A program made the position numbers and the translations under genes. From Patescibacteria group bacterium (GTDB lineage Bacteria > Patescibacteriota > Patescibacteriia > Magasanikbacterales > UBA922): a stretch of 59,899 bases of DNA. Under the pieces are notes generated by a model, which was given only the letters and a program-made list of their open reading frames with translations, was not told the DNA's origin and ran no database searches. Below, one piece after another: positions 4,523 through 9,154 of this stretch. The stretch is from assembly GCA_041658785.1 (NCBI GenBank), contig JBAZZL010000004.1:1-59899 (forward strand). The letters run 5' to 3'. How positions within the stretch are numbered: position 1 is the first letter of the stretch; each line of letters begins with the position of its first letter.

Positions 4523-4547
4523 GTTAATAACTAAAAAGACGCAGAAA

Positions 4548-4653
4548 CTGGGCGCTTACCTACTCTTCCCTTGCGAGTACCATCGGCGCTGATGGGCTTA
4601 ACTGCTGTGTTCGAGATGGGAACAGGTGTACCCCCATCGCAAGAAGCACCCAG
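4548..4653 (-). rRNA. rrf: 5S rRNA
   Basis: The reverse complement reads CUGGGUGC...CCCAUCUCGAACACAGCAGUUAAGCCCAUCAGCGCCGAUGGUACU...GCGCCCAG. It has a helix I closing stem and conserved loop sequences. Ends are +/- a few nt. Confidence 0.9.
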
Positions 4654-4853
4654 ATTCTGAGTCTTTTTGAATTTGAAAATGTTAATTGTTAACTTTCAAA
4701 AGTTAACTGCTATTGTAAAGCACAACTCTGTGTTTCCGCAGTAATGCTTGATCTATTAGTACACCTTGGCTCAATCCTTTGCAGGACTTACACCTAGTGC
4801 CTATCAACGTCCTAGTCTCGGACGGATCTCAAATGAATGGTAATCTTGGGAAC

Positions 4854-4891
<38 letters not shown>

Positions 4892-5009
4892 AAACGTCGC
4901 TACCCGGCGATGTTCTTGGCAGAACAGCCGGCACACAAGAGGTTTGTCCATCTCGGTCCTCTCGTACTAGAGATGAATTCCCTCACCATTCGACGCCCAC
5001 AGCAGATAG

Positions 5010-5051
<42 letters not shown>

Positions 5052-5052
5052 T

Positions 5053-5091
<39 letters not shown>

Positions 5092-5092
5092 C

Positions 5093-5133
<41 letters not shown>

Positions 5134-5677
5134 GCGCCGTCGCTGTGGACGCTTGGGCGCGATCAGCCTGTTATCCCCAGAGTAGCTTTTATCTGTTGAG
5201 CTTCCGCGGTCCTATGTCCCACGGTCGGATCACTAACTTCTACTTTCGTAACTGCGCGGGCTATTACCCTTGCAGTAAAGCTGGCTTTTGCGTTTGCGCG
5301 TCCACTCCGATTTCCATCCGGAGCAAGCCAACCTTTGTAAACGCCTCCGTTACAATTTAGGAGGCAACCGCCCCAGTTAAACTACCCATCAGATACTGTC
5401 TCTATAGCCTCTATAAAGGCCACGGATTAGATATGTCACAGCACAAGGGTGGTATCTCACTGTTCCCCGACTTGCGCCGGGGTCCCACCTATGCTGAACA
5501 TGTGAAGCAACATATCAATATCAAATTGTAGTAAAGCTTCATGGGGTCTTTTCGTCTAGCTGCGGGAATGTCGCATCTTCACGACAATTGCATTTTCGCC
5601 GAGTACATGGTTAAGACAGTCTCCATATCGTTATGCCATTCGTGCGGGTCGGAACTCACCCGACAAGGAATTTCGCT

Positions 5678-6499
5678 TGAATAGTTGTTAATAATATTTA
5701 TTATTAACGTTCTAGACTGTTAACTAGAACCTGCATATCGCTATGCAGACCGAACCATTTCTTCATCCCGACAATGTCGGGAGGTTGGCGTATGGTCTCT
5801 GAGGATTTTTATCAAACTCTCTCTTGGTTTTTTTCTATTCATTGTTGACGCAATTTTAGCTATTTTCACCATTCCTTTGTTCGTTAAATGTTCCTGTCTT
5901 TGCATGCATATAACACACTCAACAAACTTTTCAAAATCTTCTTGCTTTGTAGTTTTTAATTTATACTTTTTAAAAAAAGGAATTATTATGTCAATTAAAT
6001 CTTCCCTTTTTCTAACTACAAATCTATAAAGATTTTCCTTATGATTATCATATCTGCGGTTGGGGTATATATAGCCGACACCAAAGTGTTTCTTCAAAAC
6101 TTCTAAAGAAGCTCTGCTTTTTTCACCTTGAGTAACTGCGAATTCATGAAAAGGTTGGTAGCCTGTTTTGTACCCTCTGCGTATTCTTGTTTTCTCTTTT
6201 CTGTCGGATTGTTTTATAAATCCAACAGAGAAGCATCCCTCGCCATCTACAAAACCTATTACCCAACCAAGTTCGATAAATCTTTCCTGCTGATTTTCTG
6301 CGCTAGTCATATTGTTACTAGTTTAATTAAACAAGGAATAATTATACCTTGTGATATTTTAACATAGTAATGCTAGATACACCAGATTTTTCAGCATATA
6401 GCCAACTATTTTAGGACATCTTATTCATTGCTGAATAAGTAGGCAACGATCTATCAATAACCGTCCCAGTCCTTGTTGAGTGGAGAATTCCACTCAACA
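5678..6499 (-). mobile_element. intervening sequence (intron-like) in 23S rRNA carrying a homing-endonuclease ORF
   Basis: The conserved exon string ...cggcggtaactataaccgtcctaaggt (rc of 6500-6527) is separated from its universal continuation agcgaaattccttgtcggg (rc of 5659-5677) by 822 nt. Confidence 0.85.
5741..6310 (-). CDS. LAGLIDADG homing endonuclease
   Basis: 189 aa. LGWVIGFVDGEGCFSV is a canonical LAGLIDADG motif. The ORF lies wholly inside the 23S intervening sequence. Confidence 0.9.
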   Translation of the reverse strand: MTSAENQQERFIELGWVIGFVDGEGCFSVGFIKQSDRKEKTRIRRGYKTGYQPFHEFAVTQGEKSRASLEVLKKHFGVGYIYPNRRYDNHKENLYRFVVRKREDLIDIIIPFFKKYKLKTTKQEDFEKFVECVICMQRQEHLTNKGMVKIAKIASTMNRKKPRESLIKILRDHTPTSRHCRDEEMVRSA

Positions 6500-7388
6500 A
6501 CCTTAGGACGGTTATAGTTACCGCCGGCGTTCATCAGCGCTTCAGTCGCAAGCTTCTCCCGACTAAGTCGGGATAACCCACTTCTTTAACGTTCTGACAC
6601 TGGCCAGGCATCACCCCCTATACTTCCTCTTGCGAGTTAGCAGAGAGCTGTGTTTTTGGTAAACAGTCGCATGGAGTCTTTAGCTGCGTCCCCCGTCTAC
6701 GCTTTCCGCTTCGCTTCAAGCTGCGCCGGACAAGCTGTACTTAATAAATACGAGCTTGCTCGGCGTAGTTCTTCACGAAATGAAGAGTGTAGACGAGGGA
6801 AGGCCTTATCCCGAAGTTACGGCCGCTTTTTTGCCGAGTTCCTAAACCATGTTTCTCTCGTGCGCCTTGGTCTTCTCGACCTACTCACCTGTGTTGGTTT
6901 GTGGTACGGTTAGATATAGCCTAACGACATTGTACTTTTCTTGGCACCTCTCCTGCATGACTTGACCGCCTCCGAAGATTTGATCTCATCCCCGAACGGG
7001 GAACGTATAGCCATACAACGCTCATACATTTAAAATGCGAATACAATGCCAAACTATACCAAGTGCAGGAATATTAACCTGCTCTTCCATCGGCTACCCT
7101 TGTTGAACAAGGTTTACCTTAGGACCGACTAACCCAGGGACGATTCACGTTGCCCTGGAAACCTTGAGTTTTCGGCGTGACGGACTTTCACCGTCATTTT
7201 TGCTACTTGTGCCTGCATTCTCTCTTCCCAATGCTCCACCGGCCCTTACGGGTCCGACTTCACTGCGTTGGGAATGCTCCTCTACCGTTCCGCATTACTG
7301 CGGAACCCGCAACTTCGGTATATCACTTGAGCCCCGGTACATTTTCAGCGCGAAGACTCTTGACCAGTGAGCTATTACGCTATCTTTA

Positions 7389-7426
<38 letters not shown>

Positions 7427-7814
7427 AGAATCAACACCACTTTTAACACTTAGTGATAATTTAGGGACCTTAGTTTGCGATCTGGGCTGTTTCCCTTTTG
7501 ACTATGAAGCTTAGCCCTCACAGTCTGACTTGCATACTATTAATCTCTGGTATTCGGAGTTTGATTGAAAGGGGTATCCCGAAGGACCCCGCTCTCATCC
7601 AGTGCTCTACCCCCAGAGGAAACATATACAGCTAGCCCTAAAGCTATTTCGAGGAGAACCAGCTATTACCGAGTTCGATTAGAATTTCTCCGCTATCCAC
7701 AACTCATCCCCGCGTGTTACACGGCGCGTGGGTTCGGTCCTCCCCCAACTTTTACGTTGGGTTCAACCTGGCCATGGATTGCTCACCCGGTTTCGGGTCT
7801 ATTCCGACAGACTA

Positions 7815-7903
7815 GTCTACGCTACGCTACGCCTAGTAAACGTTTTTATTATTATACTTACCAAAACTATAATAATAGTTTACGCGGCGAAGCGTAGCGA
7901 AGA
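7815..7903 (-). other. 23S expansion hairpin
   Basis: gtctacgctacgctacgcc ... ggcgaagcgtagcgaagac pair around an AT-rich tip (ttattattata / tataataata). Confidence 0.7.
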
Positions 7904-8007
7904 CGCGCCCTGTTAAGACTTGATTTCTCTATGGCTTCTCCCCAGAGGGGATTAACCAAGCCAGTCGGAATAACTCGCAGGCTCATTCTTCAATAGGAAC
8001 ACCATAA

Positions 8008-8120
8008 CCGATGCTGCGCATCGGAAATTCCAAAATACAAATCCCAAAATACAAACAATATTTATAAAAGTGTTTGTTTCTTGTTTCTCGTAATTTGAAA
8101 CTTCCGGTGCGAAGCACCGG
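8008..8120 (-). other. 23S expansion segment with AT-word repeats
   Basis: Small hairpins ccgatgctgcgcatcgg and ccggtgcgaagcaccgg flank ccaaaatacaaatcccaaaatacaaac / gtttgtttcttgtttc. Confidence 0.65.
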
Positions 8121-8551
8121 CGTTGGCTCTATGTAAGCATACGGTTTCAGATACTATTTCATCCCCCTTCCGGGGTGCTTTTCACCTTTCCCTCATGGTA
8201 CTCGTTCACTATCGATCACTGTTTATATTTAGTCTTAGGCCATAGTCGGCCCAGGTTCAGACGGGATTTCACGTGGCCCGTCCTACTCAGGAATATCTGC
8301 AATAATATATAAAATATTTCGCCTACGGGACTATCACCCGCTATGGTGCTCCGTTCCAGGAGTCTTTGACTATACTATATATATTACTTCCAGCTCAACA
8401 GGTAGCTGACGCAAATATCCTACAACACCTATACTGCAACGGCCTGTCCTTTAAGAATGATGTCAAAATAAGTCCGAAGACTGATCTATTCATCACCCAA
8501 CACAGCATAGGTTTGGACTGATCCGCTTTCGCTCGCCACTACTAACGGAAT

Positions 8552-8624
8552 CGAAACCACGAATCTCTATCACGAATCAACACGAATATAAAATTCGTGC
8601 AAATTCGTGTAAAGAATTCGTGGT
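8552..8624 (-). other. 23S expansion hairpin built from cacgaat / attcgtg words
   Basis: It is inserted between the conserved strings cgctcgccactact..ggaatc and gttagtttctttcttttcctc. It contains ccacgaat, cacgaat x2, then attcgtg x3. Confidence 0.75.
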
Positions 8625-8721
8625 GTTAGTTTCTTTCTTTTCCTCTGGCTACTGAGATGTTTCACTTCACCAGGTCTTCTCCATACACCTATGTATTCAG
8701 TGTATGGTACCAGTGTTTCAC

Positions 8722-8802
8722 GCTAGAAACCAATTTCAAAATTCAGAATTCAATCCGCCAGTTGGCGGAAGGATTTTGGATTTAAGATTTTGGATTTCCA
8801 GT
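8722..8802 (-). other. 23S expansion inside the 5'-domain hairpin closed by ccagtgtttcac / gtgaaacactgg
   Basis: ~80 extra nt with aatttcaaaattcagaattcaat, a ccgccagttggcgg hairpin and ggattttggatttaagattttggattt. Confidence 0.7.
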
Positions 8803-9154
8803 GTGAAACACTGGTGGGTTCCCCCATTCGGAAATTCCCGGGTCAAAGGTTGCTTGGGACCTCACCGAGACTTATCGCACCCTGCAACGTCCTTCATAGT
8901 TAAACAGTGTCAAGGCATCCACCGTACGCCCTTAATTTGCTTACTGCGAAAACACACAATTGTGCTTTCTTGCCACGCCTCCCGATTCAATCGGGATTAA
9001 CGTGGAAATGCTTTTAACATTCTCGTTGAATTGTAATGAACCTGCTCATTTTTCTTATACTACCCAATCTTACACACGAATTAACACCAAAATATATTCG
9101 TGTTAATTCGTGAAAAAAATTCGTGGTTATAATTCGTGTCAAAGATTCGCGGTT

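Follow-up and report, generated by a model that had tools for sequence, protein, structure and literature searches.

Group I introns that carry homing endonuclease genes of the single-motif LAGLIDADG type are known at position 1931 of the large subunit (LSU) rRNA, site L1931, in several bacteria and organelles (PMC1995217), and introns at LSU/1931 in archaea have been classed as IB4 (PMC6125680). LAGLIDADG_1 open reading frames (ORFs) at 23S position 1931 have been catalogued in the Candidate Phyla Radiation (CPR), where another enzyme encoded at this site, I-ShaI, cuts its own insertion site in vitro (PMC11270868). Here, an insert of 822 nucleotides (nt) in the 23S rRNA gene of a Patescibacteria group bacterium, probably a member of the Magasanikbacteria, is analysed. 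It lies on contig JBAZZL010000004.1 of assembly GCA_041658785.1, of which positions 1 to 59,899 make up the stretch studied (the window). The insert is, we think, probably a mobile CPR intron of the L1931 (I-CpaI-site), IB4-type kind, spliced with a terminal A in the place of ωG, the guanosine that ends nearly all group I introns. Recognition of guanosine by ωG and by a G-C pair in the P7 pocket is textbook group I chemistry, and to our knowledge it has so far been changed by engineering only.

Insertion site and ribozyme core

An Rfam search of the window located a 23S-5S rRNA unit on the minus strand, with the 23S gene at 4736-8947 and the 5S gene at 4547-4653; all features below lie on this strand and are given in forward-strand coordinates. 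The 23S match (LSU_rRNA_bacteria, 2304 bits) spans 4212 nt against a model of 2925 positions, leaving about 1290 nt extra. The largest extra block is the 822 nt at 5678-6499, and several short expansion segments form part of the remainder. The interrupted gene is the sole 23S copy in the assembly, a metagenome-assembled draft of 1.2 Mb in 63 contigs that is 99.97% complete (genomes of the phylum measure 0.6-1.5 Mb). Because the host has only one 23S gene, the intron must be dealt with somehow.

Exon 1 (6500..8947) ends in ...AACCGUCCUAAGGU, with U1931 at 6500 as its last base, and exon 2 (4736..5677) begins with AGCGAAAUUCCUUGUCGGG, with A1932 at 5677 as its first. The two strings directly adjoin each other in E. 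coli and in other genomes of the phylum, among them two from the same family, one from the same order and several further ones. The conserved sequence is restored by one junction only, which can be shifted neither left nor right. In the 2905-nt E. coli 23S copy the junction U falls at 1932, but the U's of helix 69 in this copy are all displaced by +1 relative to Ψ1911/1915/1917, and thus the insertion lies between U1931 and A1932 in conventional numbering, the site of the L1931 (I-CpaI-site) family. The two same-family genomes and the same-order genome lack the intron and have an uninterrupted site. An earlier note on this DNA had described an insert of this length that splits contiguous exon strings after helix 69 near position 1931, follows a U, and ends in A at the only restoring junction. 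Comparison of the flanks with relatives and E. coli bears this out and makes the site exact.

The same note wavered between a divergent group I intron and some other kind of insertion. Judged from its sequence the insert is a group I intron, with a P3-P9 core, a P4-P6 domain, a guide, and a homologue without an ORF; nothing supports an insertion outside group I, such as an intervening sequence processed by ribonuclease (RNase) III or an archaeal-type intron. All helices from P1 to P10 could be placed by comparison with about 70 relatives, including the P3/P7 pseudoknot, the P4-P6 domain, P8, P9 and the joiners J6/7 and J8/7. The strands of P3, GUUGGC (6401..6406) and GCCAAC (5784..5789), are 612 nt apart and show compensatory changes at all six pairs among 72 relatives, which include UCUAGC/GCUAGA, UUCUGC/GCAGAA and CACAAC/GUUGUG. 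Within the P4-P6 domain (6278..6396), P4 (UGCUG at 6392-6396, CAGCA at 6288-6292) covaries with UGCGG/CCGCA, and P5 (UCUG at 6383-6386, CAGA at 6297-6300) with UCCG/CGGA, CCCG/CGGA and UCCA/UGGA. Comparison with relatives also placed the P5 extension (6301-6382) and the 5' strand of P6 (6278-6287); P6 encloses most of the ORF, and its 3' strand, AAAUCC (5803..5808), was identified by homology with the Rfam alignments of relatives.

The 3' half of the core follows the Rfam alignment of the insert itself. P7 consists of G[A]GACCA (5793..5799), with the pocket base G at 5797, and UGGUUC (5752-5757), with U5753 opposite that base. J8/7 is UGAAGAAA (5758-5765), and P8, UCCCGACA-U-UGUCGGGA (5766..5782), is a hairpin of varied sequence in all relatives and shows covariation among them. 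P9 (5731..5748) is a hairpin, CUGCAUA-GCGA-UAUGCAG; its loop is of the GNRA type, and it holds the stop codon of the ORF. Two further predicted hairpins, P9.1 (5709-5730) and P9.2 (5687-5708), are kept in a sister intron (locus L031), and the intron finishes with the tail AACUAUUCA (5678..5686), with A at 5678 in the ω position.

The earlier note had also proposed a check against the Rfam group I models, and its outcome was mixed. At the gathering threshold of Intron_gpI (RF00028), 50 bits, the whole window gave no group I match. When the insert alone was searched, 5731-5867 aligned with 24.5 bits (E 2e-4), covering J6/7-P7, P3', P8, J8/7-P7' and the GNRA-capped P9, with joiners that fit the consensus. 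The match stays below threshold because the 570-nt ORF splits the ribozyme model, so that only the 3' half is aligned. A 315-nt homologue of the same subfamily that has no ORF (L063) scores 52.7 bits (E 1e-12), above the threshold. In genome annotation, Rfam overlooks introns of the L1931 type if their ribozyme is divided by an ORF.

In an RNase III-processed intervening sequence, the two ends would join in a single long stem standing in place of the loop of helix 9, 25 or 45. This candidate was rejected: the insert lies in the linker that follows helix 69, its ends do not pair with each other, and a ribozyme core is present. A 70-bit Rfam match at another locus (L164:637-908, minus strand) was likewise set aside as support for the family; it belongs to a second group I intron, with a normal G-C pocket, which lies in a metagenome 23S gene downstream of an ORF-less L1931 intron with an A-U pocket and a terminal U. 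Two intron cores per locus were also seen in L068, L100, L138 and L160.

Guides, 5' hairpin and endonuclease

A nine-base internal guide, UCGUU|GCCU (6441..6449, intron nt 51-59), can pair with both exons. Its GCCU forms P1 with AGGU of exon 1 (4 bp, including the wobble between U1931 and G56 of the guide), and its UCGUU forms P10 with AGCGA of exon 2 (5 bp). P1 and P10 are contiguous on one guide, which fixes the splice junction at U1931|A1932. P2, a hairpin with a GNRA loop (CUUAUUCA-GCAA-UGAAUAAG, 6420..6439), begins one base after the guide, and the same (C)GYU|GCCU guide directly precedes P2 in relatives. Two alternative junctions with a genuine ωG were considered and rejected. With G1933 as ω, either A1932 and G1933 would be lost or the intron would have to begin with AG, and its first bases are UG; with the last G upstream as ω, the rRNA would keep 30 surplus nt. 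The P10 helix contiguous with P1 argues against both.

The first 26 nt of the intron (6474..6499) had been noted as a perfect hairpin, standing there instead of an obvious P1. The hairpin is confirmed, with an 11-bp stem, an AUUC loop and a closing pair between U1931 and A27 (fold z-score of the 5' region -6.4), but P1 exists alongside it: the hairpin occupies the loop that runs from the 5' splice site to the guide, and P1 was overlooked because the hairpin follows the splice site directly.

This 5' architecture is common to 19 distinct L1931 introns. In all 19 a hairpin of 9-18 bp, unrelated in sequence from one to the next, directly follows U1931 and is closed by a U1931-A pair. It is followed by an AAGGACU motif, whose GGAC pairs with GUCC just upstream of P3. 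In the window, this helix (Y) joins AGGAC (nt 27-31, 6469..6473) to GUCCU (nt 83-87, 6413..6417), and in three relatives it is compensated as GAAC/GUUC. The third element is a guide composed of RGGAC and 5-6 nt complementary to exon positions 1916-1925. Here it reads GGACGGUUAU (nt 34-43, 6457..6466) and matches the 3' strand of helix 69, AUAACCGUCC (6506..6515, E. coli 1916-1925), in 10 of 10 pairs. Across the subfamily this helix (X) shows exon/intron covariation (CC/GG, UC/GA, CG/UG). With a P1 of only 4 bp, the helix-69 guide may serve to anchor the 5' exon and to keep helix 69 open until ligation. The guide hints at how an rRNA intron could retain a 5' exon with weak pairing and postpone the folding of a key ribosomal helix.

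Among the introns with this hairpin, a 185-nt L1931 insert (L021) keeps the hairpin, the helix-69 guide, the internal guide, P2, P3, P7, P8 and ωG, apparently without the entire P4-P6 domain.

The earlier reading of a LAGLIDADG protein in the insert was correct. The ORF (5741..6310) encodes an intact endonuclease of 189 amino acids (aa) that matches Pfam LAGLIDADG_1 (PF00961) in a single stretch (E 6.9e-19, 69.1 bits against a cut-off of 23.1). With one motif containing the acidic residue, GFVDGEG, which is intact and common to 33 related intron ORFs, it belongs to the single-motif, homodimeric type. Relatives in the PDB are I-SmaMI, the domains of I-OnuI and a 170-aa single-domain enzyme, with E-values down to 1e-29. 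The endonuclease presumably cuts intronless 23S genes at the 1931 site, and repair would then copy the intron in. Mobility is suggested by the intact ORF with its motif, together with the missing intron in close relatives whose site is uninterrupted. The nearest intron relative was found in a Candidatus Magasanikbacteria assembly.

The ORF starts in the P5 extension and runs through P5', P4', the P6 loop, P7, P3' and P8 to a UAG inside P9. At 6282-6300, GCAGAAAAUCAGCAGGAAAGA of the P5'/P4'/P6 strands codes for the conserved endonuclease peptide ENQQER and clearly shows a single stretch under constraint as protein and ribozyme alike. Related L1931 introns also occur at loci in assemblies labelled Gammaproteobacteria or Planctomycetota (L036, L039, L041, L044, L046-L048, L050), with endonucleases 43-51% identical and the exon 2 variant AGCGAAGUUCC. 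These reflect either horizontal spread beyond the CPR or mis-binned contigs. One low-depth contig of a groundwater run (X1) lacks a base at 5775, in the P8 loop, which would shift the reading frame of the ORF; either strain variation or faulty assembly may account for this.

The terminal A, the P7 pocket and splicing

The last base of the intron is A (5678), and its last 30 nt contain no G at all. The 3' end other than G reported in the earlier note is real; no covariance-model match or other register gives an ωG junction elsewhere. A contig from a landfill metagenome (another run and, by its label, another habitat) is identical over 5648-6529, and the sister intron L031, with an endonuclease 81% identical, as well as the next relatives L102 and L118, all end in ...CA although their tails have diverged. 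Thus, the terminal A is real and inherited. The group I membership of the intron stands, since published group I introns without ωG exist (PMC8146996), and the lack of ωG makes the intron a variant.

The most likely course of events, as predicted from the sequence and its comparison, is splicing. The guide would align AGGU of exon 1 and AGCGA of exon 2 side by side, guanosine-initiated cleavage would occur at U1931, and the two usual transesterifications would remove the intron and ligate the exons. The ligated junction is predicted to read ...CCGUCCUAAGGU|AGCGAAAUUCC..., i.e. ...CCUAAGGU|AGCGAAAUU.... In the last position, A would stand in for ωG, held by the 5-bp P10, a 2-bp P9.0 and the exon anchor and not by tight binding in the P7 pocket. 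In the window intron, UC at 5679-5680 can form this P9.0 with GG at 5750-5751, and P9.0 of at least 2 bp directly precedes the last base in all 16 A-ending introns scored.

Several observations weigh against splicing with a terminal A. ωG and the G-C pocket pair, both near-universal catalytic features, are absent together, and the intron's own Rfam score lies below the 50-bit threshold. Helices X, Y and P1 cross, and a simple nested fold cannot hold all three; either they form a pseudoknot, or some of the pairings belong to alternative or successive states. Two metatranscriptomes yielded no contig on the intron, only exon pieces of at most 104 nt with 3-7 differences that stem from other organisms. 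One of these has a loose end at 5677 reading ...ATAACGGTCCTAAGGT, which is another organism's uninterrupted junction, since the window genome has CCGTCC there. In the Tetrahymena ribozyme, a change of ωG to A is said to block exon ligation (Been and Perrotta, in 1991). Going by its title, a 1999 report by Everett et al. is said to concern 'An unspliced group I intron in 23S rRNA...', that of Simkania, at the same site. The Simkania intron site is listed as L1931 (PMC1995217).

How unusual a terminal A is at this site was assessed by a census of L1931 introns, whose loci came from similarity in 401 genomes of the phylum, from the protein in species genomes, and from a metagenome scan with a P7 pattern in which the pocket base was left free. 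Among the 87 distinct introns, in a sample that is not unbiased because the metagenome pattern required an ACCA-type P7 (about 40 of its 120 matches were non-introns), the last base was G in 37, A in 22, C in 14 and U in 14. In many of them the junction is unambiguous, and P1 and P10 together are strong. As an internal control, 18 of 19 L1917/L1923 introns from the same pattern scan end in G. Mapped on the tree of the endonucleases, the last base has changed no fewer than 14 times.

These figures might be explained by a ribozyme that carries out the first step only. Guanosine would attack at U1931, the exons would not be ligated, host RNases would trim the intron from the 3' fragment, and the ribosome would function with a 23S split at 1931/1932; the last intron base would then be under no selection to be G. 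The difference between L1931 and L1917/L1923, which share the core type, suggests a site-specific cause, and bacterial 23S rRNAs that are fragmented and not religated are described in PMC4990558. The known fragmentation sites are, however, the terminal loops of helices 9, 25 and 45 and not the linker after helix 69. The contiguous P1 and P10, needed for ligation only, are kept in the window intron and in most relatives that do not end in G. P9.0 is kept in the A-ending introns as given above, and the last base is itself preserved within clades (U in 14 of 14 A-U-pocket introns, A in the four closest relatives here) while neighbouring tail bases vary. We therefore regard a permanently split 23S as rather unlikely.

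A different view arises from the P7 pocket. The second P7 pair after the bulged A, which we take to be the guanosine-binding pair (G264-C311 in Tetrahymena, so that G5797 corresponds to G264), is G5797·U5753 in the Rfam alignment and not G-C; P7 does have the bulged A. In the sister intron L031 the pair is G-C, and an alternative register, AGACC/GGUCU, could give the window intron a G-C pair as well. In 70 introns with both P7 strands located, about 60 anchored columns were screened for information on the last base. The two bases of the second P7 pair carry 0.72 and 0.66 bit and the next column 0.37, and no clear link was seen for the first intron bases or the tail positions.

Among these 70 introns, an A-U pocket goes with a terminal U (12 of 12; in the L1931 family all 14 introns with this pocket end in U), C-G with A (3/3), G·U with A (2/2, L049 and the window intron, which are unrelated) and U-A with C (1/1). 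A G-C pocket goes with G in 35, A in 11-13, C in 5 and U in 1, and none of the introns scored that has another pocket ends in G. The last base thus correlates best with the pocket pair, a pattern that fits recognition of the last base in the pocket. The G·U pair of the window intron might be adaptive or neutral.

Taken further, the second pair of P7 would read the last base, the L1931 family would have re-specified its nucleoside pocket several times, and the window intron would be one such variant, possibly with another cofactor. Besides the information carried by the two bases and the consistent pairings of pocket and last base, it speaks for this that A-U, C-G and U-A are double, pair-preserving changes and in this unlike expected decay. 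Moreover, two of the combinations, U beside A-U and C beside G-C, correspond to classical Hoogsteen triples, which are established triplex chemistry. On the other hand, most A-ending introns, L031 included, keep G-C, so that G·U is not needed for a terminal A; in the window intron, the alternative register would restore G-C. The set with A-U and U may be one RNA lineage, which leaves few independent events, and its conserved U could instead be exon base U1931, in which case the intron would lie one base further left. An engineered A-U pocket reportedly prefers adenosine or 2-aminopurine (work ascribed to Michel in 1989 and to Been and Perrotta in 1991) and not U. The engineered rule, A-U with ωA, accordingly fails for the natural L1931 introns, where A-U goes with U. 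On balance, re-specification of the pocket appears unlikely as the explanation for the window intron.

It might also be that the intron is never removed and stays in the mature 23S as a large expansion beside helix 69, as reported for Simkania negevensis. The title quoted above, for an intron of the same site, would support this, and the 23S of the window already has many other expansions. Against it stands the conservation of the core, the guide, P9.0 and P10, which extends to relatives without an ORF and so cannot be explained by protein coding. Helix 69 is a central inter-subunit bridge, and an 822-nt appendage there should be costly. In addition, PMC11270868, citing Brown 2015, describes the removal of rRNA insertions from the transcripts of CPR bacteria. 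Retention is thus quite unlikely. Finally, it is very improbable that an error of assembly or sequencing has put the terminal A where the true base is G: the genome is indeed a metagenome-assembled draft in 63 contigs, but the landfill contig from another run and habitat is identical, and the three closest relatives, from other assemblies, end in A.

Apart from the intron, the 23S gene at 4736-8947 contains expansion segments of about 60-110 nt, e.g. three in domain I that measure 91, 75 and 62 nt. Contigs from metatranscriptomes, belonging to other organisms, pass over the expansions at 6667-6803, 7999-8132, 8549-8639 and 8668-8815.

Comparison with known introns

Group I introns with a LAGLIDADG gene at L1931 of CPR 23S genes are an already-known kind, to which the window intron belongs. 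Three features go beyond the literature compared: ωA and a G·U pocket occur together, ωG has been lost across the family at L1931 with a link to the pocket pair, and a 5' hairpin accompanies the helix-69 guide. An L1931 family in which any of the four nucleotides may be terminal and tracks the pocket pair provides a natural set for studying the requirement for G in the second step, and it allows one to ask whether ribozyme pockets have been re-specified in nature.

The bacterial and organellar L1931 introns share the site and the single-motif endonuclease family with the window intron, which differs from them in its terminal A, its G·U pocket, and its hairpin and helix-69 guide (PMC1995217). 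The same paper describes a related L1917 intron whose ORF extends from the region of P6 across P7, P3 and P8 to a stop in P9, a layout seen here too. No description of the hairpin and helix-69 guide was found in the L1931-intron literature, a comparison that did not extend to the Thermotoga and Simkania papers. The CPR 23S insertions at 1931 (23IS7, I-ShaI; Tsurumaki et al. 2024, PMC11270868) agree in host group, site and protein family, and their flanks are there called group-I-like by Rfam at sub-threshold E-values, as in the window intron. The passages of the paper on site, intron type and splicing contain no analysis of splice-site bases, the P7 pocket or 5' elements.

For the terminal base itself, the natural and the engineered precedents are of different kinds. 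In the Tetrahymena ribozyme the P7 second pair is said to set the nucleoside bound in both steps, with pocket and ω having to agree, as in the construct G264A:C311U with ωA (again Michel in 1989, Been and Perrotta in 1991). This is a laboratory construct that combines A-U with A, whereas in the natural L1931 introns G·U or G-C goes with A, and A-U with U. The Coxiella burnetii 23S intron Cbu.L1917 reportedly 'lacks the canonical omegaG', to judge from the title of a 2007 paper by Raghavan. The sea anemone mitochondrial intron ND5-717 ends in A, like the window intron, and RNA-seq demonstrated exact exon ligation in vivo, with 21 reads on the junction (PMC8146996); splicing in vivo can thus proceed with ωA. 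ND5-717 and Cbu.L1917 differ from the window intron in host gene, site and subgroup, and in the window intron the pocket pair is changed as well. In contrast to these single oddities, an end other than G is found family-wide at L1931, in 50 of the 87 introns sampled.

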